From Alloprevotella sp. (GTDB lineage Bacteria; Bacillota; Clostridia; Oscillospirales; Oscillospiraceae), in NCBI GenBank assembly GCA_963618155.1, contig CAVEQW010000036.1, positions 10,038 through 74,037 of the forward strand: a stretch of 64,000 nucleotides of DNA, given 5' to 3'. Positions 6,721 through 64,000 of this stretch are shown in pieces. Below the pieces are notes generated by a model. It did not search any database. It was not told the DNA's origin and worked only from the letters and a program-made list of their open reading frames with translations. The position numbers and the translations under genes are program-made. How positions within the stretch are numbered: position 1 is the first letter of the stretch; each line of letters starts with the position of its first letter.

Positions 6721-6805
6721 TGGTGGGGGAAGGTGGATTCGAACCACCGAAGGCATTGCCAGCAGATTTACAGTCTGTCCCCTTTGGCCACTCGGGAATT
6801 CCCCC
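6721..6805 (-). tRNA. tRNA-Tyr (anticodon GTA), class II with long variable arm, encoded CCA
   Basis: Reverse complement reads GGGGGAATTCCCGAGTGGCCAAAGGGGACAGACTGTAAATCTGCTGGCAATGCCTTCGGTGGTTCGAATCCACCTTCCCCCACCA. The 7-bp acceptor stem is GGGGGAA/TTCCCCC. The anticodon loop is CTGTAAA and the T-arm is GGTGG-TTCGAAT-CCACC. Confidence 0.9.
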
Positions 6806-6824
6806 ATATGGAATTGTCAGGCGG

Positions 6825-6899
6825 TGGAGCTGGTGAAGGGAATCGAACCCCCAACCTACGCATTACAAGTGCGTTGCTCTACCGTTGAGCTACACCAGC
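6825..6899 (-). tRNA. tRNA-Thr (anticodon TGT), encoded CCA
   Basis: Reverse complement reads GCTGGTGTAGCTCAACGGTAGAGCAACGCACTTGTAATGCGTAGGTTGGGGGTTCGATTCCCTTCACCAGCTCCA. The acceptor stem is GCTGGTG/CACCAGC and the D-arm is GCTC/GAGC. The anticodon stem is ACGCA/TGCGT with loop CTTGTAA. Confidence 0.88.
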
Positions 6900-31721: not shown

Positions 31722-31786
31722 GCAACGGATGCGGCGCTGCTCCGCGCCCGTCCGCGATGAACCCATACCAAAGGAGGCGCTTACAT

Positions 31787-33607
31787 ATGGATAAGAAGAT
31801 CTCACTGGAGCAGCTTCTGGAGCTGACCTACAGCAAGGGCAACCGGGGCGAGAACCCGGAGGCCAAGGCTCCGAGCACACCGGAGGAATACATCATCCAG
31901 AAGGGCGACGGCTTTGCCCTCGCGTCCATGCGGATCGGGAAGGTTCCCGGACTGGGGCTCACGCCCGACCAGACCATGAAAAACGTTCCGCTCTGGCTGG
32001 GCGAGACACCGGAGATACCGGAGCTTGCCTATGAGGAGGACTGCGAGCTGCTTGTCATCGGCGCGGGTCAGTCCGGCTCGGCGGCCACGCTTCGCGCGGC
32101 GGAGCTCGGCGCCAAGGTGCTGTGCCTCGAAAGCCAGACCTGGGAGGAATATGACGACTACGCCTGCGATATGGCGACCTACAACTCCCGTTATTTTCTG
32201 GAGCGCGGCGTTCCGGAATATGACCTCATGGAGATTTTTAACGAATATATGCGCAAGTCGCTGGGGCACGCTCACCCGAAGCTGGTGCGCGACTATGTGA
32301 CCCGGTCCGGCGAGATGCTCGACTGGCTCCTGGAGCATATTCCCGAGGAATACATCCGGCGCTATGCGCGGATCCACAACCGGAACGGGAACCCGCACTT
32401 TGACGGCTCCTCCTGCGGCTCCGGCAGCTTCATCGGCCTGCTTCAATGGCGCGACGAGGAGACGAATATCAATATGTGGCCGTTTGTCATGCGCTCGGTA
32501 CACGAGTCGGCAAGGCAGCACGGCGCAAAATTCAAATACGGCGCCCAGGCGATACGCCTGCTTCAGGACGAGAGCGGCCGCGTGACCGGCTGCATCGCCA
32601 GGGACATCGAAAACCGCTTTTTCAAGGTGAACAGCCGCGTCACGCTGCTTGCGGCGGGCGACTTCGGCGGGAACCCGGATATGCTTCTCGACCTGAGCGA
32701 CCGGATGCGGAACATCGCGTGGTCGTTCGGCCATGACCGAAGCTCCGTTGACAGCATTGTCTGCGGCGGACGCGACGGCTCCGGCATACGGATGGCGCTG
32801 TGGGCCGGCGCCACCATGGAGGTCGGCCCCCGCGCGCCGATGGGCGCCAACATGAACAAGCGCCCCGAGTTCCCCTTTGGCGGCATATGGCCGTGCTTCG
32901 GGCCGGACGGCAGGCGCTTCACCAACGAGTCCATCATCCATCACGGCGAGGATGGCGCCTCGGATATGCTCCCGCTGGGCGGCATCATGGCCGTGGTCAC
33001 GGATGCCAACTGGGACAGCTACTGCGAATATCAGGGCTACGGCCACGAGGTGATGGATCGCAGCAACCCCCATATGCTGGAGACTGTTCGCGCCGAAATG
33101 GCGAATTACAAGACCGGACGCGACGGCTTCCTGGTGCAGGAGTTTGCGCGCTACGGCAAGGAATACACGCGGATATTCGCCGCCGATACGCTCGAGGAGC
33201 TCGGCACGATACTCGGCTATGAGGGCGAGGCGCTGCAGGGCTTCCTGGACGAGGTGGCGCACTGGAACGAGATGTGCCACGCCGGAAAGGACACCGACTG
33301 GGGTATCGACCCCAAGTGCCTGTTCCCCATCGAGAAGGCGCCGTTCTTCGGCCGCTCGTCCGCGCTCCAGAACGGCAAGGTCTTCGGCGGCCTCTGCCAG
33401 CACGCCGGCATATGCACGGATGGAAGCTACCGCGTGCTGAACAAGGACAAGCACCCGCTGGGCGGGCTTTACGCGGTCGGCAACAACTGCGGCCAGCGCT
33501 ACGGCGTTCAGTACAGCACGCCGACCGGCGGCAACTGCTGCGGCTTCGCGCTGACGAACGGCTATGTCTCGGCGGAGTATATCTGCGGCGAGCTCCAAAA
33601 CGGATAA
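31787..33607 (+). CDS. FAD-dependent oxidoreductase, fumarate reductase / 3-ketosteroid-dehydrogenase flavoprotein family
   Basis: ATG 31787 follows aaaggagg. The dinucleotide fold LLVIGAGQSGSAATLRAAELGAKVLCLE sits about 95 aa into the protein. The C-terminal FAD motif is GGLYAVGNNCG...TNGYVSAEY. There is no signal peptide. Confidence 0.72.
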   Translation: MDKKISLEQLLELTYSKGNRGENPEAKAPSTPEEYIIQKGDGFALASMRIGKVPGLGLTPDQTMKNVPLWLGETPEIPELAYEEDCELLVIGAGQSGSAATLRAAELGAKVLCLESQTWEEYDDYACDMATYNSRYFLERGVPEYDLMEIFNEYMRKSLGHAHPKLVRDYVTRSGEMLDWLLEHIPEEYIRRYARIHNRNGNPHFDGSSCGSGSFIGLLQWRDEETNINMWPFVMRSVHESARQHGAKFKYGAQAIRLLQDESGRVTGCIARDIENRFFKVNSRVTLLAAGDFGGNPDMLLDLSDRMRNIAWSFGHDRSSVDSIVCGGRDGSGIRMALWAGATMEVGPRAPMGANMNKRPEFPFGGIWPCFGPDGRRFTNESIIHHGEDGASDMLPLGGIMAVVTDANWDSYCEYQGYGHEVMDRSNPHMLETVRAEMANYKTGRDGFLVQEFARYGKEYTRIFAADTLEELGTILGYEGEALQGFLDEVAHWNEMCHAGKDTDWGIDPKCLFPIEKAPFFGRSSALQNGKVFGGLCQHAGICTDGSYRVLNKDKHPLGGLYAVGNNCGQRYGVQYSTPTGGNCCGFALTNGYVSAEYICGELQNG

Positions 33608-33710: not shown

Positions 33711-35720
33711 ATGAACGAACGTGTTTCCGCGCTCCTTTCCCCATTGAAAATAGGCAATGTCGTCCTGAAAAGCCGCTTGTGCTATCCCAACGCGTCCCCG
33801 CACTTTCTGCAGGGACCCGAGACATGGCCGTCCGATGAATTCCGTAATTTCTATGCGAACCTGGCCAAGAGCGGCGCGGCCTATATCGACCTCTGGGAGT
33901 GGAACAACCCGAAACAGCGCGTCGAGGGCGAGCAGGACAGCATCCGTATGCAGTGCTTTGACACGAGCGACCCCAGCACGACCAACTATCTCTCCGCGCT
34001 GGCGGACGAGGTGCATTTCTACGGCTCCAAGCTCTGCGTGGTCAAGAAGTTCACCTGGCCGGAGGGCTATAGCTTCGGCGGCGGCTTCCCCATCTATGCC
34101 CGTCCCGGCCTCCGGAGAGTCGAGACGAAGGCCGTGACCGAGGAAATGATACAGGAGGCTGTGGAGGATATCGTCCGGAGCCTCGAGATGTATAAGACCT
34201 GCGGCTATGACATGGTCTGCTTCATGATGGACTGGTTCCTGAATCCCAACGCCAACCACCGCACGGACAAATACGGCGCGCAGACGCCGGAGAATGCGGC
34301 GAACTTCATGAAGCTGCTTGCGACCCGGATCAAGGAGCGGCTGGGAAAGGATTTCCTGATCGAGGGGCAGATCCACGGCGAAGAGCACCGCGCGTTCTCC
34401 GTGGACGACATGGTGCGCTTCCTCAAGGCGCTGGAGGGCTATATCGACATCGTGTCCCTGCGCGAAAAGGATGCGCCGCTCAACCACCCGAGCGGATATA
34501 ACTTCAAGGAAAACGTATACCCCTGCGTGGAGTATGCCCGCGCGATCAAGGCCAGCGGCAACACGATGAAGGTGGCGCTGAACGGCGGCTTCCAGAACCC
34601 GGAGGTCAGCAACCGGTACATCGCGGACGGGAGCGCTGACCTCATCAGCCAGTCCCGCGGCTTCATCGCCGACTGCGATTATTTCCAGAAGATCAAGGAG
34701 GATCGCGTGGAGGACATCATCCCCTGCGTGCTCTGCAATAAATGCCACGGGCTCCTGCGCGGGCCGTGGATCAGCGTCTGCACCGTCAACCCGAAGTTCG
34801 GTATGCAGGCGAAAATGAAGCGGATGATCGACGCGCCCACCGGCGTGCGGAGGGTCGCGGTCATCGGCGGCGGCCCCACCGGCCTGCACGCGGCGATGTA
34901 TGCCGCTGACCGCGGCCATCAGGTGACGCTCTACGAAAAGACCGATAAGCTGGGCGGCCAGCTCTTCCACAGCGACTATGTTTCCTTTAAGTGGCCGCTG
35001 AAGCGCTTCAAGGAGTGGATGATCGCCCAGTGCGAGAAGCGGGACAACATTCAGATCGTCCTCAACTGCGCGCCCACGCGGGAGGAGCTGCTGGCGCAGG
35101 GCTATGACGCGGTCATCGCGGCGACGGGCGCTGTCCCCAATGTCCCGAACGTGGAGGGCATGAGAGACGCGGACGGGAAGCTTGCGCCCGGTCTTATGAC
35201 CTGCCTCGATGTTTACGGCCACGAGGACGAGCTCGGCAGGAACGTCGTCGTGATCGGCGGCTCCGAGACGGGCATCGAAACGGCGATGCACCTGACGGAA
35301 AAGGGTCACACCGTCCATGTTCTCAGCCGCCAGAAGGAGCTTGCGCCCGATGCGGGCAAGCTGCACGGCATCACGATGGCCTATGCGGAAAACCGTCCCG
35401 ACGGGACGGAGGATATGTTCGCCGCGTGGGAGATGTACGGCGCGCGGCGCGACCTCTGGGGCAGCGGGCTCAGCTGGACGCTCGAGGCGACCACGACGAG
35501 GGTGGAGCCGAAGCGCGTCACCTTTGTGACAAAGGACGGCGTGGAGCACGTTATGGACTGCGACACGGTCGTGATATCCGGCGGCATGAAGCCGTGCACG
35601 GACGAGGCGCTCGCCTATGCGGGAACGGCCAACCAGTTCATGGCCGTCGGTGACTGCGAGAAGCCGACCAACCTGCAGATAAACCTGCGCCGCGCGCTGG
35701 GAGCGGCCTCCCAGATCTGA
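33711..35720 (+). CDS. NADH:flavin oxidoreductase with Fe-S and FAD/NAD(P) domains (2-enoate reductase / 2,4-dienoyl-CoA reductase / BaiH family), copy 1
   Basis: 669 aa. It has an N-terminal TIM-barrel-like region, the 4Fe-4S motif CVLCNKCHG..(x)..C, and VAVIGGGPTGLHAAMYAADRGHQVTLYEK plus a second Rossmann motif VVVIGGSETGIE. Confidence 0.8.
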   Translation: MNERVSALLSPLKIGNVVLKSRLCYPNASPHFLQGPETWPSDEFRNFYANLAKSGAAYIDLWEWNNPKQRVEGEQDSIRMQCFDTSDPSTTNYLSALADEVHFYGSKLCVVKKFTWPEGYSFGGGFPIYARPGLRRVETKAVTEEMIQEAVEDIVRSLEMYKTCGYDMVCFMMDWFLNPNANHRTDKYGAQTPENAANFMKLLATRIKERLGKDFLIEGQIHGEEHRAFSVDDMVRFLKALEGYIDIVSLREKDAPLNHPSGYNFKENVYPCVEYARAIKASGNTMKVALNGGFQNPEVSNRYIADGSADLISQSRGFIADCDYFQKIKEDRVEDIIPCVLCNKCHGLLRGPWISVCTVNPKFGMQAKMKRMIDAPTGVRRVAVIGGGPTGLHAAMYAADRGHQVTLYEKTDKLGGQLFHSDYVSFKWPLKRFKEWMIAQCEKRDNIQIVLNCAPTREELLAQGYDAVIAATGAVPNVPNVEGMRDADGKLAPGLMTCLDVYGHEDELGRNVVVIGGSETGIETAMHLTEKGHTVHVLSRQKELAPDAGKLHGITMAYAENRPDGTEDMFAAWEMYGARRDLWGSGLSWTLEATTTRVEPKRVTFVTKDGVEHVMDCDTVVISGGMKPCTDEALAYAGTANQFMAVGDCEKPTNLQINLRRALGAASQI

Positions 35721-35791: not shown

Positions 35792-37816
35792 ATGAATCAC
35801 AGATATCAGACTCTTATATCCCCGTTCGTTCTGCCGAACGGCGTTGTCCTGCGTACGCGCATGGTGCATCCGAAATGCGCCCCCGACCAGAATCAGGGGC
35901 CGGAGGACTTTCCCACCGAGATGTTCATCCACTTCCACCGCGAGATGGCGCGGCGGGGCAATGCGCTGGTGATCGCGGATATCCGCGACACGCCCGCCGT
36001 GCGCCAGATGCCGGACTCCCACGACTTCGCGCATTCCTATACCTTCGATATCAAAAATCCGGCCGTGCAGAATTACGTCTGCCAGCTCGCGGACGACGTT
36101 CACTTCTATGGCTCCAAGGTGCTTGCCATGTGTATGCCCATGCTCCCCAGGGGGAAGACGCTCGGCGGAAAATCGCCCCGCTTCCGCCAGGAGGCCAGAG
36201 GCTTTGTCCCCATGCCGCCGATGGAGATGGCGACAAAGGAGGAGATAAAGGCCGCCATCGACGATGCGGTCGCCCGTGCGCTGAAGTTCAAGAGCTGGGG
36301 CTATGACGGCATCGCGGTACACATCTACAATGACCTGAACGCGGACATGAACATCCGCACCGACGAATATGGCGGGAGCACGGAAAACCGCTGCCGCATG
36401 ATGATGGAGCTGTTTGACGCGGTCAAGAGGGCGTGCGGAAAAAAATTCATCGTCCACGCGATGCTCAACGGCGTTCCCGTGGAGGCGGACCGCCGCCCGG
36501 AGGACGTCAGCCCGGGATACACGCTGGACGACGTGGTCACGTTCTGCAAGCTGGCCGAGGGGCGCTGCGATGTGATCACGGTGCGTGAGCTGAACATCAC
36601 CGAAAGCCACCCCACGGGCTATACCTTCGATAAGGAGCAGCATCGCTGCATCAATATGATCGCCTATCTGAAGGCGGCCGGGGTCAGGATCCCGCTTGCC
36701 GCCGCCGGTGCATTCCAGGATCCGGGGGAGATGGAACGGCTGCTGCGCGCCGGCGCCTGCGACCTTATCAGCATCGGCCGCGGCCAGTTCACCGACAAGG
36801 ACTATTTTGAAAAAATACTCGCGGAAAAGGGCGAGGAGATACGCCCGTGCATCCGCTGCAACCGCTGTCACGGACGCCGCCGCGCGCCGTGGACCTCCGT
36901 CTGCACGGTCAACCCGGAGTTCGGCTGCGAGCTGAAGGACCGGCATATGATACAGCCTGCGGCGGGCGGCAAGAAGGTCGCAGTCATCGGCGGCGGCCCC
37001 GCCGGTATGCAGGCGGCGATCACAGCGGCGGAGCGCGGTCACCGGGTCACGCTGTTTGAAAAGACCGGCTATCTCGGCGGGCAGCTTTTCCATGCGGATC
37101 ACTTCTCCTTCAAGTGGCCGTTCCGCGACTACCGCCTCTGGCTTATCGACGAGCTGGGGCGCAAGGGCGTCGAGGTGCGGCTCCACTGCGAGCCGACCCC
37201 AGAGGAGCTTTCCGCGGCCGCCTATGACGCGGTGCTTGCCGCGACCGGATCGGTGGCCGTCCTGCCCGAGGTCGAGGGGATGCACAAGCCGGACGGAAGT
37301 CCCGCACTGAAGACCTGTCACGACGTCATCGGCCACGAGGACGCGCTCGGCAAGAACGTCATCATGGTCGGCTGCTCGGAGACGGGCATCGAGACGGCCT
37401 GCTATCTCGCGCAGCACGGCCATAACGTGACCTGCCTCACCCGGCAGGATATGCTCGCCAAGGATGCCTCGCCGCTGCACAGCATCACGATCGCCTATGT
37501 GAAGCCCTGCCACCCGATGACCGGCGAGACCTATCTGGCGCACTACTGGGAGCGCTTCGACAGCATCCGCGGCATCACCAACGCGAACACCGTGAGGGTC
37601 AGCGAAAAGACCGTCACCTATGTGGATGCAGAGGGCACGGAGCACACGCTGGAGGGCGACGACGTCATCGTCTGCGGCGGTGTCCGCCCCTATCTGGAGG
37701 GCGCGCTGAAATACGCGTCTGCTGCGCCCTACTTCCGCCTGATCGGCGACGTGGACGGCGCCGGCGATATGCAGAGATCCATCCGCGGCGCCTTCGGCGC
37801 AGCCAGCCAGATCTGA
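35792..37816 (+). CDS. NADH:flavin oxidoreductase with Fe-S and FAD/NAD(P) domains (same family), copy 2, tandem paralog
   Basis: 674 aa and collinear with copy 1. Motifs are CIRCNRCHG..C, VAVIGGGPAGMQAAITAAERGHRVTLFEK and IMVGCSETGIE. It ends in the same GAASQI tail. RBS is gaaggagag. Confidence 0.8.
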   Translation: MNHRYQTLISPFVLPNGVVLRTRMVHPKCAPDQNQGPEDFPTEMFIHFHREMARRGNALVIADIRDTPAVRQMPDSHDFAHSYTFDIKNPAVQNYVCQLADDVHFYGSKVLAMCMPMLPRGKTLGGKSPRFRQEARGFVPMPPMEMATKEEIKAAIDDAVARALKFKSWGYDGIAVHIYNDLNADMNIRTDEYGGSTENRCRMMMELFDAVKRACGKKFIVHAMLNGVPVEADRRPEDVSPGYTLDDVVTFCKLAEGRCDVITVRELNITESHPTGYTFDKEQHRCINMIAYLKAAGVRIPLAAAGAFQDPGEMERLLRAGACDLISIGRGQFTDKDYFEKILAEKGEEIRPCIRCNRCHGRRRAPWTSVCTVNPEFGCELKDRHMIQPAAGGKKVAVIGGGPAGMQAAITAAERGHRVTLFEKTGYLGGQLFHADHFSFKWPFRDYRLWLIDELGRKGVEVRLHCEPTPEELSAAAYDAVLAATGSVAVLPEVEGMHKPDGSPALKTCHDVIGHEDALGKNVIMVGCSETGIETACYLAQHGHNVTCLTRQDMLAKDASPLHSITIAYVKPCHPMTGETYLAHYWERFDSIRGITNANTVRVSEKTVTYVDAEGTEHTLEGDDVIVCGGVRPYLEGALKYASAAPYFRLIGDVDGAGDMQRSIRGAFGAASQI

Positions 37817-54921: not shown

Positions 54922-56892
54922 TTACAGGCGCAGCACGGCCCAGTAGCCCTCGAGCATGGCCTCGCGGGTTTTTTTGGCCTTGACGCCGCGGAGGCAGTCG
55001 CCGACGGGAATGACGACGGGCGCGGAATAGATGAGGCTGTCATAGGCCGCCGTGTTCGAGCGCAGGCCGAGTGCGTAGATCACAGAGTCGGCCTCGATGC
55101 TGTGCTCGCCGCCGGCGGCGTCCGCCGCGTGAACGGTCCTGCCGTCGTCGATGCCGGTGACGCGAAGGCCGGTGCGGACGTGGAGCGAGGGCGTCTCCGC
55201 AAAGGCCTGCAGCATACCCTCCTTGTGCATCCAGTTGGCCTCCGGCGCGATCTCGTCAAGCATCTCAACGATGGTGACCTCGTGCCCGGCCTTGGCGAGA
55301 AACAGCGCCGTCTCGCAGCCGATGAGGCCGCCGCCGAGGACGGCGACATGGCGGCCGAGCTTGTCAAGCCGGGTGTACGCGGCCGTCGCGTGCTGCACAC
55401 GGGGGTCGTCCAGCCCCGGAATGGGGGGCTTCGCCGCGAGTGAACCGGCGGCGAGTATCACGGCGTCAAAGCCGTTTTCCCTGACATACTCCGGCGTGAC
55501 CTCGGTGTTGAGGCAGATTTTTGCGCCGGACTTTTCGGCCATATAGACAAGGTGCTCCTTGAGCCGCCACAGGTCTATCTTCAGATCGTCATAGTCGGTG
55601 AAGCTGAGGAAGCCGCCGAGCCTGCCGGAGCGCTCGCAGAGCGTCACGTCATGCCCGCGCTTCGCCGCCGTGGCCGCCGCCTTCAGACCGGCAGGGCCGC
55701 CGCCCACGATGAGTACCTTTTTCTTTGCGCCCACGGGCGGGACATAGTTGCGGTAGCGATCCTCGCGTCCGGCGGAGGGGTTGACCGAGCATTGGAAATG
55801 CTCGCCGCTGTGCATCCCGGCGAGGCAGTCGAGGCAGCGGAGGCATGGGGTGATCTCCATGGTTCTGCCCTGCGCGGCCTTTTCGGGGAAATGCGGGTCG
55901 GCGATGAGGGCGCGCGTCATGGCGATGATGTCTGCCTTGCCGTCTGCCAGTATCTGCTCCGCAAGCTCCGGCGTGTTGATGCCGCCGATGGTGACGACCG
56001 GGGTTCTGATGCCCGCCCTTTTCACGGCCTCCGCGTATTTCACGTTGACGCCGTGGGGCAGAAACATGGTGGGGTGGGTGCGGACGGCCTGCGCCCGCTC
56101 CGGGTCAAGACCGGCGGAGACGTGGATGAAATCGACCCTGCCGTCGATGAGCCTTGCAAACTCCACGGCCTCGTCGATCTGGAGGCCGCCGTCGATCTCC
56201 TCGCAGCCGCTCATGCGGTACTCAATGAGGAAGCTGTCGCCCACGCGCTCACGCACGCGGTCGATGACCATGAGCGGGAACCTGGCGCGGTTTTCAAGGC
56301 TGCCGCCGTAGCCGTCTGTGCGCCGGTTGTAGTGGGGGGAGAGGAACTGGTCAAGAAGCCAGCCGTGGCCGCCGTGGATCAGGCACATATCATATCCGGC
56401 GTCCTTGAGCAGCGCCGCGCAGGCGGCAAAATGCTCTGCCACGTCGTCCATGTCCCCCTCCGTCATGGCGCGCACCCGCACGCCGTCCGGGCGCAGGAGC
56501 TCCACGGGGCCGATGGGCTCGCCGCCGCCGTTTGCGGCGGGAGAGGCGTATATACCGGCGTGGTTCAGCTCGTGCGAGGCGAGGGCGCCGCCCTCATGGA
56601 TGGCCATGGCGAGCTCGGAGATATAGGGGAGGACGGCATTGCGGTTTTTGCAGTCGAGGTTGAAGCTCCGGGGATTGGAGGCGGCGTGCTCGCGGTCAAC
56701 GGGCGTGTCGCCCAGCGTGACGACCGCCGCGCCGCCGCGTGCCTTTTCGGCGTAGTAGGCGATCATGGAGGGCATGGGGAAGCCGTCCTTATCCATCATG
56801 CACATCATATTCGGCGCGGAGAACAGGCGGCTGCGGAAGGTCAGGCCTTTGACCGAGAAGCTCTCGAACAGATGCGGATAATATGCGTTCAT
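54922..56892 (-). CDS. NADH:flavin oxidoreductase with Fe-S and FAD/NAD(P) domains (2-enoate reductase / BaiH family), copy 3
   Basis: The start at 56892 is MNAYYPHLFESFSVKGLTFRSRLFSAPN. It has the OYE-like barrel, CLRCLDC..C and VLIVGGGPAGLKAAATAAKRGHDVTLCER. The 91 aa upstream in ORF 57165 overlap the LysR gene. Confidence 0.85.
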   Translation of the reverse strand: MNAYYPHLFESFSVKGLTFRSRLFSAPNMMCMMDKDGFPMPSMIAYYAEKARGGAAVVTLGDTPVDREHAASNPRSFNLDCKNRNAVLPYISELAMAIHEGGALASHELNHAGIYASPAANGGGEPIGPVELLRPDGVRVRAMTEGDMDDVAEHFAACAALLKDAGYDMCLIHGGHGWLLDQFLSPHYNRRTDGYGGSLENRARFPLMVIDRVRERVGDSFLIEYRMSGCEEIDGGLQIDEAVEFARLIDGRVDFIHVSAGLDPERAQAVRTHPTMFLPHGVNVKYAEAVKRAGIRTPVVTIGGINTPELAEQILADGKADIIAMTRALIADPHFPEKAAQGRTMEITPCLRCLDCLAGMHSGEHFQCSVNPSAGREDRYRNYVPPVGAKKKVLIVGGGPAGLKAAATAAKRGHDVTLCERSGRLGGFLSFTDYDDLKIDLWRLKEHLVYMAEKSGAKICLNTEVTPEYVRENGFDAVILAAGSLAAKPPIPGLDDPRVQHATAAYTRLDKLGRHVAVLGGGLIGCETALFLAKAGHEVTIVEMLDEIAPEANWMHKEGMLQAFAETPSLHVRTGLRVTGIDDGRTVHAADAAGGEHSIEADSVIYALGLRSNTAAYDSLIYSAPVVIPVGDCLRGVKAKKTREAMLEGYWAVLRL

Positions 56893-56926
56893 GGTTATCG
56901 TCTCCTTGCTGTATCGTTCTTGTGCT

Positions 56927-57832
56927 TTATGCAGGTGCCTCGCCGTCCGGCGAAACGCAGCCGCGGAGCACGTCGAGGAAGAGACGGACGCTGGGGTTGT
57001 GCCCGTCGGCGCGCCACGCGGCGATATAGCGGCGGCTGGTGTCCATGTCGGTGATGGGAACGACATCCACAGAGCTTGCGAACAGCACCGAGGGCAGCGC
57101 CGCCGGCATGATGGACACGCCGAGCCCCGCGCTGACGGCGAGCAGCACGGATTCGAGCTTGTCATAGCGGTTCATGATGCTCGGCACGAAGCCGTGTGCG
57201 GCGCAGATGGACATGATCTTGCGGTAGAGGTCGGTGTTGCACGGCTCCTGCGACAGGATGAAGCGCTCGTGCTCCAGCGCCCGGAAGTCGAGCGGCTTAT
57301 CCGCGAGCGGGTGTCCCTTCGGCACGACGAGCGCCAGCGAGTCCTTGTGCGTCACCATCGAGTCCCAGCCGTCGCCCGGCGGAAGCATATCCTGCTGGAG
57401 CAGGTGCACGTCATAGCGGCTTTCGCGCATGGCGGCGGTCTGGCCGGCGGCGGTCTGGAACGCCACGTCGACGATGACGTCCGGGTGGCGGGTGAAGAAG
57501 GCGTCGAGCGCCCGCGTGAGCATGGTGGAGCAGGTCGTGAGCGCCGAGATGTAGAGGTGGCCGCCCGCGCCCTCGCGGACATGGCCGACGAGAAGCTGTG
57601 CCGACTGCGCCGTGTTGAGGATGTCGAGCGCATAGGGGAGCAGCGCCGCCCCCGCCTCCGTCAGAACGACCCGGCGGCTGCTGCGGGAGAAGAGGGTCAC
57701 GCCGAGGCTCTGCTCAAGCTGGCCGATCTCACGGCTGACGGAGGATTGCGAGATGCCGAGCTGCTGCGCTGTCTGGCGGAAATTGAGGATGTTGGCCAGC
57801 GCGACAAAGCAGCTGAGCTGGGATATTTCCAT
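56927..57832 (-). CDS. LysR-family transcriptional regulator
   Basis: 301 aa. The N-terminal wHTH is MEISQLSCFVALANILNFRQTAQQLGISQSSVSREIGQLEQSLGVTLF, followed by a LysR substrate-binding domain. Confidence 0.92.
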   Translation of the reverse strand: MEISQLSCFVALANILNFRQTAQQLGISQSSVSREIGQLEQSLGVTLFSRSSRRVVLTEAGAALLPYALDILNTAQSAQLLVGHVREGAGGHLYISALTTCSTMLTRALDAFFTRHPDVIVDVAFQTAAGQTAAMRESRYDVHLLQQDMLPPGDGWDSMVTHKDSLALVVPKGHPLADKPLDFRALEHERFILSQEPCNTDLYRKIMSICAAHGFVPSIMNRYDKLESVLLAVSAGLGVSIMPAALPSVLFASSVDVVPITDMDTSRRYIAAWRADGHNPSVRLFLDVLRGCVSPDGEAPA

Positions 57833-57847
57833 GGCGTTCGCCTCCTT

Positions 57848-57873
57848 ATACTGTGTTATGATACTGTGCTATG
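57848..57873. promoter_or_regulatory. 13-bp tandem direct repeat (ATACTGTGTTATG / ATACTGTGCTATG) in the divergent control region
   Basis: Two adjacent units with one mismatch lie immediately upstream of the LysR RBS, in the AT-rich 197-nt intergenic region. Confidence 0.5.
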
Positions 57874-57969
57874 ACGCTATTTTAGGGGCTTGTGATGAAA
57901 AAGTCAATTCGTTTTACGCCGATCAATTTATATTATGAATCACTGTAATCGAAAAAATGAATTTGAGTA

Positions 57970-57999
57970 TTGACAAGCGGCGAGCGGCAATGCCATAAT
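57970..57999 (+). promoter_or_regulatory. Sigma-A-type promoter with TG-extended -10 for the small-ORF / molybdoenzyme operon
   Basis: TTGACA (57970-57975), an 18-nt spacer, then CATAAT (57994-57999) with TG at 57991-57992. It ends 30 nt before the ATG at 58030. Confidence 0.6.
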
Positions 58000-58029
58000 G
58001 AGCATACACATTAGAATTAGGAGGGGCGC

Positions 58030-58446
58030 ATGATGGAGCCGAAGAGGCCGGAGAACGCGGTGGAGCTTGCGCCGCTGGACAAGGACGGCGCGAAGCTGCT
58101 CGAATGTGTGGACGGCGGCGACATGGGCGCGGTGCTGTCCGGGGACGAGCTCATGTATGTGCTTTTGTTCCGGGGACAGTATCACTGCTTCATCCACAAG
58201 CTCGACGCGCCGGAGGGGCGGCATAAGTGCTTTGCGCCCGATGAGCGCAACCGCGCGATGCTGAAGAATCTTGATTCCGCGGCGGATGCGCTTTTCCGGA
58301 TACGCTTTGAGAAGGACATGGATCGCATGGGCGTGATGGAGGCGGCGGAGCGCGGCATATGCCGCTATCTGGACAGCATCGGAAGGCTGCCGGTGGAGGA
58401 TGTGGACTTCATGGCGGCCTATGAACAGGAGGGAGATAAGACATGA
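58030..58446 (+). CDS. Hypothetical protein (138 aa), cassette ORF 1
   Basis: RBS is aggagg. Codon usage resembles that of neighbouring genes. It contains YHCFIHKLDAPEGRHKCF, a Cys/His-rich patch. No family was recognised. Confidence 0.6.
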   Translation: MMEPKRPENAVELAPLDKDGAKLLECVDGGDMGAVLSGDELMYVLLFRGQYHCFIHKLDAPEGRHKCFAPDERNRAMLKNLDSAADALFRIRFEKDMDRMGVMEAAERGICRYLDSIGRLPVEDVDFMAAYEQEGDKT

Positions 58447-58640
58447 AAACCTATCGTTTTCTGGTGAGGAGCACCAGACGCGGCTTCACGGAATGGGTCA
58501 GCGTGCGGGAAGACGGCGTTGAGCTGCGGCGCATCGACCGCGACGTGTGGCAGGAGACGGTGCGCGAGTTCCGCGAACGCGTGGCGGCGGAGCTCGAGGC
58601 CGAGGGCTATGTACCGGAAGAGCACCAGTACACATTGTAA
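58443..58640 (+). CDS. Hypothetical protein (65 aa), cassette ORF 2
   Basis: It has an ATGA overlap with ORF 1. It is basic at the N-terminus and acidic at the C-terminus. No family was recognised. Confidence 0.5.
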   Translation: MKTYRFLVRSTRRGFTEWVSVREDGVELRRIDRDVWQETVREFRERVAAELEAEGYVPEEHQYTL

Positions 58641-58652
58641 GGAGGGGAGAGC

Positions 58653-59132
58653 ATGGAATATTTATCTGTTCTGATACAGCACCACGCGGGCCCCACCGGC
58701 GATGTGCTGGTCGCCAAGAACGAGCGGGGTGTCTGGGAGCTTCCCAACGGTGCCGTCCGCGTGAACGAGAGCGACGGGGATGCGGTGAAGCGCGTGTGCT
58801 GGGAGACGCTCGGCATGACCGTCACGCCCGGCCGCCTCGAAATGCTGGGGCACCACTATTGCCTTGACGGCACGGTCGAGCATATCGTCTGCGGCAACAT
58901 CACGCACAACACCCACACGAAATGCGACTATCATAAATATTATACCGCCGTGGACACCTGGCAGACCGAGCCGCAGAGCGGGAAATACAGCGAGTTTATG
59001 TGGGTACACCCGTCCGAGCTCGGCCGGCTTGACTTTGGCGGAGACGACGCGGATTTCATGGCGAAATTCGACCCGTGGATCAACGGCCGTCCCGTTCCCG
59101 ACCGCCGGATGTACGGCAGGGAGGCGCAATGA
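58653..59132 (+). CDS. Nudix-fold protein with degenerate Nudix box (159 aa), cassette ORF 3
   Basis: GAVRVNESDGDAVKRVCWETLGM fits the Gx5Ex7REUxEExGU spacing exactly, but REUxEE is RVCWET. The preceding GVWELPNG resembles the G-WxxPGG of MutT-like proteins. Confidence 0.6.
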   Translation: MEYLSVLIQHHAGPTGDVLVAKNERGVWELPNGAVRVNESDGDAVKRVCWETLGMTVTPGRLEMLGHHYCLDGTVEHIVCGNITHNTHTKCDYHKYYTAVDTWQTEPQSGKYSEFMWVHPSELGRLDFGGDDADFMAKFDPWINGRPVPDRRMYGREAQ

Positions 59133-59410
59133 AGAAATACGTTTTTGAAGCGGCGCGGCGGCAGCTTGAAAAGCCGACCGAGCCGAAATATGTCTTCTGC
59201 ACGGCGGCGCGCACCGTCGTCCTCGCGGAGACGGAGGAGGAGGCGCGGCTGCTGGCGCAGCGCGATCTCGATAAGATGTACCACGGCTCCGGCACGGCGC
59301 TCGGCGCGCTGCGTTGCGTGTCGGTGGAGGAGCTTCCCGTGGACTGGAGCTACGGCTACGGCGAGCGCACGGATAGAGACGGGCTCATCGCCCGCTATGT
59401 GATACGATAA
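59129..59410 (+). CDS. Hypothetical protein (93 aa), cassette ORF 4
   Basis: ATG 59129 overlaps the ORF 3 stop (ATGA). No family was recognised. Confidence 0.5.
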   Translation: MKKYVFEAARRQLEKPTEPKYVFCTAARTVVLAETEEEARLLAQRDLDKMYHGSGTALGALRCVSVEELPVDWSYGYGERTDRDGLIARYVIR

Positions 59411-59423
59411 GGGGGCGGCGATA

Positions 59424-59945
59424 ATGGAGCTTGAGAAAAAATATCTGCTGCATCTGCCGGAGGGCAATGTGTTCCTGCGGCGGGAGGAGCTTTATGAGCG
59501 CGTGAAGGGCTTTCTGAAGGATCACCCCAGCGAGCATATCAACGCCTTCCGCATCTGGTACGAGGACTTTGAGGGCTGCGGTATGCCCGGGTCGGACGTA
59601 TACGACTGCATCGTGGACTGCATCCGCTCCATGCCGGAGGACTGGCAGGACATCGGCCCCATGCGCTCCGAGCGCTACGGCGTGATCGACCCCACGTTTC
59701 TGAACCTGCACTATGCCGAGCGCCGCAAGAGCGCCGAGGCAGCCGGCGGGCCGGTCGATATGCTGCAGCACCAGTTCCACCTCGGACGGCATTATCAGGG
59801 GCCGGACGGGCGTGTGTTCTGGCTGCCCGTGATCGAGGATTTCGATATGCGCGGCTTTGAGCGCGTGGACGGGAAATACGTCGGCACGATGGTCGAGATC
59901 GACCCGCGCTCGGACTATGCCCGCCAGATGGTCGAAGTGAAGTAA
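59424..59945 (+). CDS. Hypothetical protein (173 aa), cassette ORF 5
   Basis: RBS is aaggggg. No family was recognised. It ends 14 nt before the molybdoenzyme gene. Confidence 0.55.
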   Translation: MELEKKYLLHLPEGNVFLRREELYERVKGFLKDHPSEHINAFRIWYEDFEGCGMPGSDVYDCIVDCIRSMPEDWQDIGPMRSERYGVIDPTFLNLHYAERRKSAEAAGGPVDMLQHQFHLGRHYQGPDGRVFWLPVIEDFDMRGFERVDGKYVGTMVEIDPRSDYARQMVEVK

Positions 59946-59959
59946 GGGGGAGGACGAGA

Positions 59960-62713
59960 ATGAACGAAACTAACGCCATGCGCTCCGTGTCCAAGGACGA
60001 GCGCATCACACACAGCGTATGCGTCGGCGGGCCGATGACGCTGCACACCTACAACGGCGTGATCCGCCGCGTGCGCCCCATCGTGCTGACGGACGACGAC
60101 CCCGCCGCGTGGGTCATCAAGGCGCGCGGCAAGCAGTTCACGCCCCAGCGCAAGACGACGATGAGCCTGCTCGGCTACTGCGAGCGGGATAAGACCTATG
60201 CCTATGACCGGCTGAAGTACCCCATGATACGCGAGGACTTCGTGGAGACGCCGGACGGCAAGAACCGCAACACCGAAAACCGCGGCAAGTCCGGCTATCG
60301 CCGCGCCTCCTGGGATGAGGCGCTCAGCCTTGTCGCCCGCGAGATCAAGCGCCTGCAGAAGACCTATGGCAAGGAGACCATCACGGCCTGCACCTCCTCC
60401 CACCACTCATGGGGGCTTGTCGGCTATAAGATCTCCCTGTTCAAGCGCTTCTTCTCCATGATGGGTTATACCCGCATCGCGGACAACCCCGACTCATGGG
60501 AGGGCTTCCACTGGGGCACGCCGCACTCCTACGGCTACTACTGGCGGCTTGGCGGCCCCGAGCCCTACGATATGCTGGAGATGGCCATGCAGAACGCGGA
60601 GACCATTATCTGCTGGTCGACCGACCCCGACACGAGCCGCGGCGGCTACTCGGCGCAGGAGTCCGCCCTCTGGCGCTGGTGGATGAAGGAGTCCGGCATC
60701 CAGTTCATCTATATCGACCCGTTCAACAACTACACCTCCGTCAAGCAGGCGGACAAGTGGATCGGCCCGCGTATGGGCACGGACTCCGCCATTCTGGAGG
60801 CCATCGCCTATGTCTGGATAACGGAAGATTTGTACGACAAGGAATACGTCGCGCAGCACGGCCATCGCTTCGAGGAATTCAAGGCGCACATCCTTGGCCT
60901 CGGCCCCGACGGGACGGCCAAGACCCCGCACTGGGCGTCGGAGCTCTCGCTCGTGCCCGCCATGGACATCAAGGCCATTGCCCGCCGCTGGGCAAACTCC
61001 GTCACGACGGGCGGCTCCGGTATGCGCGGCGGCTTCGGCGGCGCCTGCCGCCACTCAAACGGTACGGAATATGCCCGCCTCATGACGCTGCTCTTCGCCA
61101 TGCAGGGCATGGGCAAGCCCGGCCGTGCCTTCTGGTCGCCGGCCTGCGGCGGTCCGATGAACTATAACTTCTGGTTCGGCGGCTACTCCGACCCGCTCTC
61201 CTCCATCGCCAACCCGCCGGTGTGCGACAACCCGCCGGTCAACAGCGTGGAGCAGGTGCTGTACCGTCCGAATCTGCCCGACGCGATTCTCGACGGGCAT
61301 TATGAATGGTACGGCGAGGGCTTCTGCGGCGGCGGCGTCGACCTCGAGTTCACGCGCCACGTCTACCCCATGCCGGGCTATAATAAGGTACACTGCTTCT
61401 GGCGCTACGGCGGCTCGTTCTTCGGCACTATGCTCGACACGAACAAGTGGGCGAAGATGTACAAGAGTCCGGAGCTGGAGTTCGTCATCAATCAGGACAT
61501 CTATATGACCCCCGAAACGCGCCATGCGGACGTGATCCTGCCCGCCTGCTCCAATCTGGAGCGCGTGGACATCGGCGAGGTCGGCAACTCCGGCAACGGC
61601 GGCTACTGCTCCCACTCCCAGACCGGCAACTCGTGGCAGGTCATCGTCTATCAGGACAAGGCCATCGAGCCGATGTGGGACTCCCGCTCCGACTTCTGGA
61701 TCTTCTCGCAGGTCGCGGCGCGCCTCGGCTGGGGCGAGGCATTCACCGAGGGACGCGACGAGGAGCAGTGGGCCAAGCGCTTCTGGCAGTTCTCCGACCT
61801 GCCCAAGCACATCAGCTGGGAGGATTTTAAGAAAAAGGGCTACTATATCCCGCCGGTCTCCTATCACGAGGAGGACAAGGACCCGGAGACGGGACTCTAT
61901 GAAAACTGGGATCGCTACCCCGGCTTCCAGTGGTTTGCGGAGAACCGCCCCTGCGACACGATGAACCATAAGATATTCCAGGAGGAGGGCAAGCTCGGTA
62001 CCTTCTCCGGTAAGTTCGAGTTTGTGTCCGAGTCGCTGGCCTACTGGGCGCCGGACGACGAGGCGCGCCGCCCCATCCCGAAGTATCAGGATTCGTGGGA
62101 GGGCTTCAAGTCCCTGTCGGCGGACAAATTCCCGTTCGGCCTCATCTCGCCGCACCCGCGCTTTGACTACCACACCCACTACCAGCAGCACGCAAAATGG
62201 CTCTGGGAAATACCGAAAAACCGCGTCATCATCAACGGCAACCCCTATCTCGTCTGCCATATCAATGTGAAGCTGGCGGAGCAGAAGGGCATCAAGGACG
62301 GCGATGTCGTCCGCCTCTTCAACGACCGCGGCAGCTGCCTCATGGTCGCCCGCGTGACCCGCCGCATCAACTATGAGACGATCCACGCCTATACCTCGTC
62401 CGGCATCTATAACCCCATCGACTACGGCACGGTCATGAGCACCGACAAGGGCGGCAGCATCAACGTCCTCGTCCCCGGCCGCCTGATCGGCGATTACGTC
62501 CCGGCGATGGCACCGTACAGCTGCAACATCGACATCGAAAAGAGCGAGCCTGACCCCAACTTCGGACAGGGCTTTGAGCACATCCTCGACGCGGTGGACA
62601 AGCAGCAGCTCGAGACGGAGCGCCCCATCCGCACCTCCATGCAGGCCGACAGGCTGTTCGGTGAGCGGGAGCAGTGGCTGCGTGAGCAGCTTGAACAAAA
62701 GGAGGCTGACTGA
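59960..62713 (+). CDS. Molybdopterin (bis-MGD) oxidoreductase, pyrogallol hydroxytransferase large-subunit-like
   Basis: 917 aa.
- It has no twin-arginine signal and no N-terminal CxxCxxxC Fe-S motif.
- Motifs recalled from the Pelobacter transhydroxylase alpha subunit: SSHHSWG, NPDSWEGFHWG, DKWIGPRMGTDSA, YDKEYVAQHGHRFEEF, MQGMGKPG.
- It has a C-terminal barrel domain (GDVVRLFNDRGS). Confidence 0.8.
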   Translation: MNETNAMRSVSKDERITHSVCVGGPMTLHTYNGVIRRVRPIVLTDDDPAAWVIKARGKQFTPQRKTTMSLLGYCERDKTYAYDRLKYPMIREDFVETPDGKNRNTENRGKSGYRRASWDEALSLVAREIKRLQKTYGKETITACTSSHHSWGLVGYKISLFKRFFSMMGYTRIADNPDSWEGFHWGTPHSYGYYWRLGGPEPYDMLEMAMQNAETIICWSTDPDTSRGGYSAQESALWRWWMKESGIQFIYIDPFNNYTSVKQADKWIGPRMGTDSAILEAIAYVWITEDLYDKEYVAQHGHRFEEFKAHILGLGPDGTAKTPHWASELSLVPAMDIKAIARRWANSVTTGGSGMRGGFGGACRHSNGTEYARLMTLLFAMQGMGKPGRAFWSPACGGPMNYNFWFGGYSDPLSSIANPPVCDNPPVNSVEQVLYRPNLPDAILDGHYEWYGEGFCGGGVDLEFTRHVYPMPGYNKVHCFWRYGGSFFGTMLDTNKWAKMYKSPELEFVINQDIYMTPETRHADVILPACSNLERVDIGEVGNSGNGGYCSHSQTGNSWQVIVYQDKAIEPMWDSRSDFWIFSQVAARLGWGEAFTEGRDEEQWAKRFWQFSDLPKHISWEDFKKKGYYIPPVSYHEEDKDPETGLYENWDRYPGFQWFAENRPCDTMNHKIFQEEGKLGTFSGKFEFVSESLAYWAPDDEARRPIPKYQDSWEGFKSLSADKFPFGLISPHPRFDYHTHYQQHAKWLWEIPKNRVIINGNPYLVCHINVKLAEQKGIKDGDVVRLFNDRGSCLMVARVTRRINYETIHAYTSSGIYNPIDYGTVMSTDKGGSINVLVPGRLIGDYVPAMAPYSCNIDIEKSEPDPNFGQGFEHILDAVDKQQLETERPIRTSMQADRLFGEREQWLREQLEQKEAD

Positions 62714-62714
62714 T

Positions 62715-63584
62715 ATGTGGAAAAAGCCGATGAAAAAACCGGGCATCGCCATCAACTCCGCCCGCTGCATGGCGTGCTACGCCTGCTTCATGGCCTGTAA
62801 GGACGAGCACTGCGGCTGGGACACGGCGCTGTCCAGGTCCGAGCCGGAGCTTGGCCAATACTGGATGAACATCGTTGAATGGGAGCGCGGCGACAACGAG
62901 CGCCGCATCAAGACGGCCACCGTGCCGACGCCCTGCTCCCACTGCGACAAGCCCGCCTGCCTCGCGGCGGCCAAGAACGGCGCGGTCTATAAGCGCCCGG
63001 ACGGCATTGTCATCATCGACCCGGAGAAGGCAAAGGGACAGAAGCAGATCGTGGATGCCTGCCCCGTGGGCGCGGTCTACTGGAACGAGCAGGAGCAGCT
63101 TCCGCAGAAGTGCACGATGTGCGCGGAGCTGCTGGACGACCCGGATTATCCCGGCTTTGAGCCGCGCTGCGTCGAGGCCTGCCCCAATCAGGCGCTGGTG
63201 TTCGGCGATCTCGCCGACCCCGACTCTGAGATAAGCCGTCTCATCGCGGCCAACAAGGTCACGCAGCTTGAATGCCTGGGCGACATGGGCTCCAGCGTGG
63301 TGCACCTCAACATCCCAAACGCCTTTCTGGCCGGAACGGTCGCCTATCCCAGGGAGCTGGAGGAGGTCTGCATCGGCGCGCACGTCGTCATAAGCTGCGC
63401 CGAGACGGGCGAGCGCCATGAGATGGACACGAACTGGGCGGGCGATTACGAGTTTGAGGATCTGCCCAAGGGCAAGAGCTGGACGGTCGAGATAAGCTAC
63501 CCCGGCTTCAAGCCGGTCGTCTACAACGATGAGCGCACCGACCACGACCACTATGTCGGCATAACCTATCTGGAAAAGGAATAA
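62715..63584 (+). CDS. 4Fe-4S ferredoxin-type beta subunit, pyrogallol hydroxytransferase small-subunit-like, with C-terminal beta-sandwich domain
   Basis: ATG 62715 lies 2 nt after the alpha stop. Cys clusters are CMACYACFMAC, CSHCDKPAC, CPVG, CTMC and CVEACP. DGIVIIDPEKAKGQK and YWNEQEQLPQKCTMCAELLDD match the recalled BthL subunit. The tail resembles a carboxypeptidase-regulatory-like fold. Confidence 0.8.
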   Translation: MWKKPMKKPGIAINSARCMACYACFMACKDEHCGWDTALSRSEPELGQYWMNIVEWERGDNERRIKTATVPTPCSHCDKPACLAAAKNGAVYKRPDGIVIIDPEKAKGQKQIVDACPVGAVYWNEQEQLPQKCTMCAELLDDPDYPGFEPRCVEACPNQALVFGDLADPDSEISRLIAANKVTQLECLGDMGSSVVHLNIPNAFLAGTVAYPRELEEVCIGAHVVISCAETGERHEMDTNWAGDYEFEDLPKGKSWTVEISYPGFKPVVYNDERTDHDHYVGITYLEKE

Positions 63585-63602: not shown

Positions 63603-63630
63603 CAGGTATGCTCCTCTGCGGGCATACCTG
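63603..63630 (+). terminator. Possible terminator after the molybdoenzyme operon
   Basis: 9-bp stem caggtatgc/gcatacctg with a 10-nt loop, followed by cttatt (weak T-run). Confidence 0.45.
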
Positions 63631-63660
63631 CTTATTATACTATACTTTGGGAGCATACAA

Positions 63661-64000
63661 ATGAAGGATTCGACAAGGAAGCTATTGAGCCTGTGGGCGC
63701 GGCGGCTGCTGGTGTACTTCACGGGACTGTTTATTATGGCCATCGGCGTGGTGTTCTCCGTGCGCTCGGCGCTGGGCGTGAGCCCCGTGACCTGCCTCGC
63801 CAACGTGATGTGCCAGATCACGGCAGCCGACCTCGGCCTCTGCACAACGCTCAGCTACTGCTTCTACATACTGGTGGAGGCGCTGCTCCTGCGACGCGAT
63901 TTTCAGCCGAAAATGCTGCTGCAGATACTGGCCTCGACCTTTTTCGGCGTGCTCGTGTCGCTGGCGACACGGCTTTTCTCGTTCCTGCCCGCACCGACAA
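63661..64000 (+). CDS. Membrane protein (YczE/DUF6198-like), 5' part only; runs off the window
   Basis: It is not in the ORF track because no stop is reached. My translation is MKDSTRKLLSLWARRLLVYFTGLFIMAIGVVFSVRSALGVSPVTCLANVM..., with multiple TM helices. RBS is ttgggag. Confidence 0.55.
   Translation, partial: MKDSTRKLLSLWARRLLVYFTGLFIMAIGVVFSVRSALGVSPVTCLANVMCQITAADLGLCTTLSYCFYILVEALLLRRDFQPKMLLQILASTFFGVLVSLATRLFSFLPAPT

Follow-up and report, generated by a model that had tools for sequence, protein, structure and literature searches.

Conserved small proteins encoded with a transhydroxylase-like molybdenum enzyme in gut Oscillospiraceae

The transhydroxylase step feeds pyrogallol derived from gallate and tannins into the phloroglucinol pathway, and biochemical knowledge of the enzyme rests on one alpha-beta dimer from Pelobacter. 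The characterised transhydroxylase requires 1,2,3,5-tetrahydroxybenzene as co-substrate (PMC13039779), and the PgtL/RhL family is Ser-ligated and cytoplasmic (PMC10100899). Here we describe a seven-gene operon in a 64-kb stretch of DNA from a gut member of the Oscillospiraceae, the whole of which is called the window below. In this operon the genes for an alpha subunit (917 aa, 59960-62713) and a beta subunit (289 aa, 62715-63584) of this enzyme type are preceded by five small open reading frames (ORFs), namely O1 (138 aa, 58030-58446), O2 (65 aa, 58443-58640), O3 (159 aa, 58653-59132), O4 (93 aa, 59129-59410) and O5 (173 aa, 59424-59945), all on the plus strand. Loci of relatives are labelled L followed by a number.

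The original prediction, made from the letters of this DNA, had left two options for the five small ORFs, an accessory module of the enzyme or an unrelated cassette captured by the operon. Our analysis favours the accessory module, with O1 and O5 as its core. The enzyme type itself is already known; the tailed subclass of alpha subunits and the accessory proteins described below are newly noted here, and the five families are without a curated model. Our literature search found no paper on a tailed subclass or on accessory proteins of pyrogallol transhydroxylase.

The enzyme and five small genes

Alpha matches the large subunit of the pyrogallol hydroxytransferase of Pelobacter acidigallici (4v4c_A) with E 4.4e-203 over residues 15-865 at 44% identity, and contains the Pfam domains AhtL-like_1st (PF21423, 1.4e-13), Molybdopterin (PF00384, 9.4e-30) and Molydop_binding (PF01568, 4.3e-12). 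Beta matches 4v4c_B (E 1.5e-44, residues 11-265) and carries Fer4_11 (1e-24) as well as CarboxypepD_reg (5.3e-8), which represents a C-terminal immunoglobulin (Ig)-like domain; as a multi-[4Fe-4S] protein with three [4Fe-4S]-type Cys motifs and this Ig-like domain it has the features of the small subunit. The earlier naming of the last two genes as homologues of the two transhydroxylase subunits is borne out by these matches. Equivalents of H144, D174, S175, Y404 and Y560 are conserved in alpha, and the first four are kept in the window protein and in every aligned relative, while R153 of the Pelobacter enzyme is replaced by K and W354 by F. We take Ser175 to be the Mo ligand and His144, Asp174 and Tyr404 to be active-site residues, the roles reportedly given to them by Messerschmidt et al. 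2004. Read by eye, and not with a predictor, the N-terminus of alpha (MNETNAMRSVSKDERITH) contains no twin-arginine or iron-sulphur (FeS) motif. The operon enzyme is predicted to be a cytoplasmic two-subunit molybdenum enzyme with a bis(pyranopterin guanine dinucleotide) form of the cofactor (Mo-bisPGD) in alpha and [4Fe-4S] clusters in beta. Judged by homology it belongs to the pyrogallol-phloroglucinol transhydroxylase family, and its reaction is most likely a hydroxyl shift on a trihydroxybenzene, for example from pyrogallol to phloroglucinol, in anaerobic polyphenol breakdown.

The five small ORFs share one coding signature, with a G+C content at the three codon positions (GC1, GC2 and GC3) of 0.62-0.67, 0.34-0.44 and 0.79-0.83 in a genome of 63% G+C. 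Each has between 45 and 61 intact orthologues that hardly vary in length, and the ratio of nonsynonymous to synonymous substitution (dN/dS) against the window ranges from 0.08 to 0.30, indicating purifying selection. Because GC3 is about 0.8 with GC1 above GC2, and because length-conserved orthologues and low dN/dS accompany this pattern, we conclude that all five are genuine genes. When 1.84 billion representative proteins were searched exhaustively with HMMER and the joined O1-O5 query, only 89 representatives came back for all five families together, all of them short stand-alone proteins. The families are mutually unrelated (hhalign, all probabilities <3%), so that an origin by duplication of one domain was rejected.

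In line with the original prediction, which could name none of the first five ORFs apart from a decayed Nudix fold in O3, we found for O1, O2, O4 and O5 no Pfam or NCBIfam match at E ≤ 1 beyond marginal, chance-level ones far under the family cut-offs, no PHROG or PADLOC match at E ≤ 0.1, and nothing significant when the family profiles were compared with PDB sequences. An identity of the small ORFs with MoaD, MoaE, MobA or TorD was rejected, being unsupported by Pfam, NCBIfam and Foldseek.

O1 has a GC3 of 0.80, a dN/dS of 0.14-0.23 and 58 orthologues; a search with the family profile collected 108 clusters, none carrying a Pfam domain or a name, and H56 and E107 are invariant in the family. 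O5 has a dN/dS of 0.09-0.18 and 61 orthologues, and its profile collected 185 clusters, likewise without Pfam domain or name, in which 23 residues are invariant. Structure prediction followed by Foldseek had been proposed with the original prediction, and was carried out for these two proteins using AlphaFold2 (AF2) with the family alignments. The O1 model has a mean predicted local distance difference test score (pLDDT) of 88 and is mixed alpha/beta, and the O5 model has a pLDDT of 91 with two mixed alpha/beta domains; neither found a solved structure in the PDB at E ≤ 1e-3. The best matches of O1, a herpesvirus M48 protease and beta-clamp domains, were rejected for template modelling (TM) scores <0.4 and high root-mean-square deviation. 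Relatives of O1 that stand alone lie directly after a DUF4349 gene in three loci (L081 9001-9501, L083 9001-9492, L089 9001-9507); others (L084-L086, L087, L088, L091) lie before rimP-nusA-infB in one locus set or beside an OKR_DC-type aminotransferase in two sets.

O3 matches the Pfam family NUDIX (PF00293) with 30.3 bits against a cut-off of 21.1 (E 4.9e-7), and its family profile matches the Nudix hydrolase 3ees at 1.5e-9, which makes it the only small-ORF family with matches among PDB sequences. The family box reads G-x5-E-x7-R-[VI]-x-W-E-[QT]-x-G-[MIL] in place of the intact GX5EX7REUXEEXGU with its three catalytic and metal-binding Glu, two of the three REUXEE glutamates being lost family-wide. 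With the fold kept and a single one of these Glu remaining, the term decayed Nudix is apt, and by its profile matches O3 is a degenerate Nudix-fold protein. The O3 family is tiny and confined to the transhydroxylase-like operon.

Cys/His-rich patches had also been pointed out in O1, O3 and O5. They are present in the window sequence, yet most of their Cys are not conserved in the families, and metal-binding Cys/His motifs were therefore rejected as the key to function. In the O1 patch His56 is invariant and the remainder is not; in O5 the glycines of FEGCG are invariant, whereas its Cys is replaced in distant members and DCIVDC varies. The His-rich loop of O3, an insertion of ~20 residues with the pattern EHIxCGNITHNTHTK..YH, is well conserved but missing from several members (L027, L031, P0043, P0014). 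The statement that the operon "fuses" the small ORFs to the enzyme pair holds in the sense of operon linkage, not of gene fusion.

Co-occurrence of O1 and O5 with tailed alpha subunits

A scan with the alpha subunit, taking one genome per species, returned 80 loci, nearly all from metagenome-assembled genomes (MAGs) of Oscillospiraceae or other Clostridia from human, ruminant, rodent and bird guts. Four loci with 82-93% alpha identity (L006, L027, L042, L073) are binned as Barnesiella, Bacteroidaceae or Flexilinea, placements that probably reflect MAG binning errors and not gene transfer. Co-occurrence was counted in those 59 loci in which alpha has an intact start and the DNA extends 2.1 kb or more upstream of it. 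O1 and O5 lie directly upstream of alpha in 56 of the 59; all five small ORFs are present in 44, O1 and O5 only in 11, O1, O2 and O5 in one, and none in three. The order O1-O5-alpha-beta is still found where identity has dropped to 66% for alpha and to 27-41% for O5. The reverse approach gave the same picture, as each of the four distant O5 homologues examined (27-41% identity) has an O1-like gene on one side and an AhtL-like alpha-beta pair on the other. Since 56/59 loci and 4/4 distant O5 homologues share it, we regard O1-O5-alpha-beta as the conserved core. The gene-neighbourhood survey that had been suggested for the enzyme thus shows that the pair in relatives does carry the small ORFs.

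O2, O3 and O4 are seen only where alpha shares 82% identity or more with that of the window. O2 occurs in 45 of the 59 loci; its 45 orthologues measure 62-66 aa, 17 of its residues are invariant, and dN/dS is 0.08-0.14. O4 likewise has 45 orthologues, which are 93-107 aa long and share the motifs EKPTEPK and DW(S/N)YGYG, and its dN/dS is 0.20-0.30. We infer that O2-O4 are a later, lineage-specific addition to the module of O1, O5 and the enzyme.

The presence of O1 and O5 goes strictly with the length of alpha, and O5 was seen exclusively beside tailed alphas of the transhydroxylase type. All alphas preceded by O1/O5 are long (894-920 aa) and possess a tail of 35-50 residues past the end of the Pelobacter enzyme; in the window this C-terminal tail comprises residues ~866-917 (62555-62710, plus strand) and is absent from the characterised enzyme. 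All alphas without O1/O5 are tail-less and short (855-857 aa), namely L047, L048, L059 and the first pairs of L092 and L093. AthL of Pelobacter acidigallici (875 aa) is also without the tail, as are proteobacterial plasmid homologues, whose alignment to alpha ends at residue 861. In a neighbour-joining tree the short L047-type alphas nest within a clade of two long groups (100/100 bootstraps for the clade), and monophyly of the long alphas alone received 16/100 bootstraps. This nesting of tail-less proteins inside a tailed clade suggests that the tail and O1/O5 were lost jointly in the L047 type. What the survey adds to the original prediction is that only O1 and O5 form the core, that they are associated with a tailed subclass of alpha, and that tail-less pairs are without all five small ORFs.

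Possible roles of the small proteins

We consider it rather probable that O1 and O5 are dedicated physical partners of the enzyme. Both would bind alpha, plausibly via the C-terminal tail, which may thus serve as a docking site for partner proteins. They could then act either as enzyme-specific factors for assembly and cofactor insertion, in the way that chaperones of the TorD/NarJ type serve other members of the superfamily, or as extra stoichiometric subunits. O3, with most of its catalytic Glu lost, could bind rather than hydrolyse a nucleoside-diphosphate-X compound, for example the guanine dinucleotide form of the Mo cofactor.

Several observations weigh against such a partnership. O1 and O5 are alpha/beta proteins, unlike the all-helical TorD/NarJ chaperones. 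Transhydroxylase-like pairs without O1/O5 occur in related Clostridia, even within the same locus (L092, L093), and since the Pelobacter enzyme is moreover active as an alpha-beta dimer, O1 and O5 are dispensable for basic fold, cofactor loading and chemistry. Relatives of O1 at 27-39% identity occur singly and are not neighboured by a Mo enzyme of the transhydroxylase type, which implies a wider function of the O1 fold, the operon copy being a specialised paralogue. The invariant residues of O5 include the charged or aromatic E47, R81, E83, H116, D128, E138, R143 and E146, a set that would be equally in keeping with a small enzyme or a ligand binder. The tree was built by simple neighbour-joining and supports its key node at 73%, and the tail sequences of the two tailed groups are unlike each other (...PIRTS..AD.LFGE in the window type, ...DDAETC.EIIEG.GF..IQ in the L092/L095 type), so that the tails are perhaps not homologous, and the correlation draws on few independent events. 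Finally, the clade of the window (L001-L003) lacks adjoining phloroglucinol or molybdenum cofactor (Moco) genes.

The main alternative, possible but unlikely, is that O1 and O5, perhaps together with O2-O4, are small enzymes or ligand binders acting on aromatics, which would make, sequester or recycle 1,2,3,5-tetrahydroxybenzene or convert an upstream polyphenol into the true substrate. We know of no described cellular source of 1,2,3,5-tetrahydroxybenzene, and the locus offers a testable lead on the unexplained origin of this co-substrate. The need of the characterised enzyme for it (PMC13039779) would fit such a role, as would the acidic, basic and His residues among the 23 invariant positions of O5, the invariant His and Glu of O1, and a tight operon linkage and pathway context like those of pathway enzymes. 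Many relatives hold a second, distant AhtL-like pair next door, which suggests that the locus handles more than one hydroxylation step. The perfect correlation with the alpha tail, on the other hand, would be unexpected for proteins acting on small molecules only; none of O1, O2, O4 and O5 could be assigned to a catalytic family or fold, and tail-less enzymes in related bacteria manage without the small proteins, though presumably with the same need for the co-substrate. Quite improbable, in our view, is that O5 and/or O1 are docking or regulatory adaptors which connect the FeS chain of beta, otherwise idle, with ferredoxin or another redox partner and so turn the redox-neutral enzyme into a net hydroxylase or dehydroxylase, or which sense substrate and modulate activity. 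The C-terminal ~60 residues of O5 do weakly resemble SH3/KOW barrels, including NdhS (6a7k, 3c4s), the ferredoxin-binding subunit of cyanobacterial NDH-1, and the redox-neutral reaction of the Pelobacter enzyme is not known to involve its FeS clusters. These Foldseek matches are local (probabilities 0.8-0.98) and not significant (E >0.2), however, and the operon contains no conserved gene for a redox partner, be it a ferredoxin, a flavodoxin or another; its enzyme has the active-site residues of the transhydroxylase.

That the five ORFs are an unrelated captured cassette of mobile, defence or toxin-antitoxin type, or that some of them are not genes, is close to refuted. Distant O1 relatives do occur alone in unrelated contexts, and O3 gave a weak match to the PADLOC candidate family PDC-S07 (3.9e-8) besides phage Nudix PHROGs, but these were the only PHROG and PADLOC matches and reflect generic Nudix similarity. 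Synteny across MAGs from human, ruminant and bird guts in 56/59 loci and purifying selection on all five ORFs speak against a cassette, and relatives of O1 and O5 were found neither in IMG/VR nor among the plasmids of PLSDB. The window is ordinary chromosome with mutL, ileS, sepF, divIVA and spoIVB; no integrase or transposase lies near the operon, which is flanked by housekeeping genes. The small ORFs thus appear to be neither a mobile nor a defence system.

A partnership of O1 and O5 with alpha may be extended to a bolder proposal, which we regard as doubtful: O1 and O5, joined by O2-O4 in some lineages, would form an unrecognised partner system for Mo-bisPGD enzymes, made of folds without a solved counterpart and docking on the tail. 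It would either deliver or lock the cofactor, the catalytically dead O3 serving as a carrier of the guanine-dinucleotide cofactor, or supply or retain tetrahydroxybenzene, and the latter, if true, would account for the priming of transhydroxylation in the cell. Since it is widespread in Oscillospiraceae MAGs from human, ruminant and bird guts, this type of locus is likely to be a main route of anaerobic trihydroxybenzene breakdown in guts and rumens. If there is a tailed subclass with two to five dedicated partners of unknown fold, the assembly, regulation or priming of the gut enzymes would differ from that of the Pelobacter dimer, and their heterologous expression may fail without the partner proteins. 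The finding offers a first clue to the function of five protein families without a Pfam or NCBIfam model, and matters most for the fields of gut polyphenol metabolism and Mo-enzyme assembly.

Operon signals, surroundings and known systems

The operon promoter-like site TTGACA-N18-(TG)CATAAT (57970-57999, plus strand), noted before as a good promoter facing away from a LysR gene, was recovered at these coordinates; it agrees with the consensus at 11/12 positions and has TG before the -10 hexamer. A scan of the region gave 4 such sites against 1.8 +/- 1.4 in shuffled sequences, which by itself makes the scan weak evidence. The reality of the promoter is better supported by the five closest LysR-linked loci (L001-L004, L062), where both hexamers are kept and the spacer sequence varies. 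The packing of the seven plus-strand genes likewise agrees with the earlier description: O1/O2 and O3/O4 overlap as ATGA, the remaining gaps measure 12, 13, 14 and 1 nt, and a GGAGG-like ribosome-binding site precedes each ORF. The consensus scan found no plus-strand terminator-like site within the operon and neither promoter nor terminator in the 14-nt gap between O5 and alpha (59945/59960), the junction where a break in transcription might have been looked for. The first plus-strand terminator-like site downstream of the operon promoter is a hairpin with an 11-bp stem just past beta (63603-63630, annotated as 63603-63640). Its T-run is weak (CTTATTATAC). Conserved hexamers, gaps of at most 14 nt or overlaps, a ribosome-binding site for each gene and the lack of an internal terminator together argue that the seven genes are one real operon, predicted to be a single transcription unit.

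The divergent gene encodes a LysR-family regulator of 301 aa (56927-57832, minus strand; Pfam HTH_1 2.4e-20, LysR_substrate 4.2e-31), and the operon is probably under its control. A divergent LysR gene occupies the same place in L001-L004, L009, L010, L014, L052, L062, L063, L067 and L075 (38-93% identity), and many other relatives are without one at that position. Its own promoter-like site, TTGACT-N17-TAAAAT, lies at 57879-57907 on the minus strand (consensus scan, 10/12 positions), within a block TTGTGATGAAAAAGTCAATTCGTTTT that the intergenic alignment shows to be kept in L001-L004 and L062. Alignment of the regions between LysR and O1 also brought out a block at 57921-57966 (no strand assigned) containing an imperfect inverted repeat GATCAAT...ATGAATCA; the block is conserved among the window, L001-L003 and L062 and is a candidate LysR-binding site. 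A Moco riboswitch was considered for the operon leader and rejected, as the leader is only ~30 nt long, none was found in the window, and in relatives the riboswitch precedes moeA.

In most relatives beta is directly followed by a thiolase and a BKACE-family gene, after which come moeA, a MoCF-domain gene, moaA, moaC, a mog/moaB-like gene and a MOSC gene. The Moco riboswitch RF01055 was found between BKACE and moeA (L016 15973-16109, plus strand, 81.9 bits; L006 16277-16425, plus strand, 61.2 bits), and because of this position before moeA we regard the Moco-biosynthesis genes as a separate cofactor-sensing unit. Also nearby are a MerR regulator with a PF04199 cyclase and a 3-hydroxyacyl-CoA dehydrogenase (3HCDH), CoA-transferase subunits, modA/modC-like transporter genes and a transporter of the major facilitator superfamily. 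The phloroglucinol pathway described in Clostridium scatologenes employs enzymes of the cyclase, dehydrogenase and BKACE families (PMC10470551). No BKACE, PF04199 cyclase, 3HCDH, thiolase or CoA-transferase gene is present within the window. In its clade a DUF6198 membrane protein follows beta and replaces thiolase and BKACE (63661-64000, plus strand, in the window; 13683-15071 in L001); the family lies near the operon in 11 loci and for that reason may perhaps be a substrate transporter.

The second AhtL-like alpha-beta pair adjoins the operon in L016 (3580-6318, plus strand) and ~20 other loci, for example L013, L018-L020, L022, L027, L030, L033, L035, L044, L047, L048 and L056, and further L057, L059, L061, L063, L064 and L074. 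Its alpha has ~911 aa, matches 4v4c_A at 1.9e-135 and has no small ORFs upstream; the pair may carry out another hydroxylation or transhydroxylation step. Two low-identity relatives, L092 (1465-4976) and L093 (1-2956), have genes for a glycyl-radical enzyme and its radical-SAM activase just upstream of two tandem transhydroxylase-like pairs, with thiolase, cyclase and CoA-transferase downstream.

Elsewhere in the window there are three paralogous flavoenzymes of the old yellow enzyme (OYE)/2,4-dienoyl-CoA-reductase type with Oxidored_FMN and Pyr_redox_2 domains (33711-35720 and 35792-37816 on the plus strand, 54922-56871 on the minus strand), which may be enoate or flavonoid reductases, as well as a FAD_binding_2 protein (31757-33607, plus strand). 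The third of these flavoenzymes adjoins the LysR gene, and a homologue is found near the operon of L002 too. Its mechanically called ORF (54922-57165, minus strand, 747 aa) overruns the 3' end of LysR; as the Pfam match begins at an internal Met (MNAYYPHLFES...), the gene probably starts near 56871. Two tRNA genes were located at 6724-6899 on the minus strand (Rfam RF00005, 74 and 51.6 bits).

Among known systems, TorD, DmsD and NarJ are enzyme-specific maturation chaperones of the DMSO reductase superfamily. They are small proteins from the operon of the Mo-bisPGD enzyme that they serve; they attach to the catalytic subunit in its apo form, either at a terminal peptide or at its core, and their sequences change more quickly than that of the enzyme. 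These chaperones (Pfam Nitrate_red_del) are a possible functional analogy for O1 and O5, which however have no sequence match to them, are mixed alpha/beta and not all-helical, and did not retrieve them among the Foldseek matches; moreover the putative docking element would be C-terminal, not N-terminal. Compared with Nudix hydrolases of the MutT/RppH type, O3 keeps the G-x5-E-x7-R spacing, whereas two REUXEE Glu are replaced and the His-rich insertion is added. Resorcinol hydroxylase RhLS belongs to the RhL/PgtL branch of Ser-ligated MopB enzymes acting on phenols (PMC10100899). The RhLS/AhtL-like paralogues are of the same branch as the window alpha, but the second pair of the relatives is 30% identical to it, without small ORFs upstream, and absent from the window.

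The closest counterpart is the pyrogallol hydroxytransferase of Pelobacter acidigallici (EC 1.97.1.2; AthL/AthS, PgtL; PDB 4v4c), which the window enzyme resembles in full-length homology of alpha and beta and in the AhtL-like first domain. The two share the Ser ligand of Mo, the His/Asp/Tyr active site, the lack of a twin-arginine signal and the FeS and Ig-like domains of beta. The window alpha differs from it by the additional C-terminal tail of ~50 residues and by the changes at R153 and W354, and its host is a gut Firmicute (Oscillospiraceae) as compared with a marine member of the Desulfuromonadales. Whereas the Pelobacter enzyme is an alpha-beta dimer, the genes of the window enzyme stand in an operon with those of five conserved small proteins, which together with the alpha tail suggests additional partners. 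Linkage to genes of the phloroglucinol pathway is common to both systems, being seen here in the relatives of the window.

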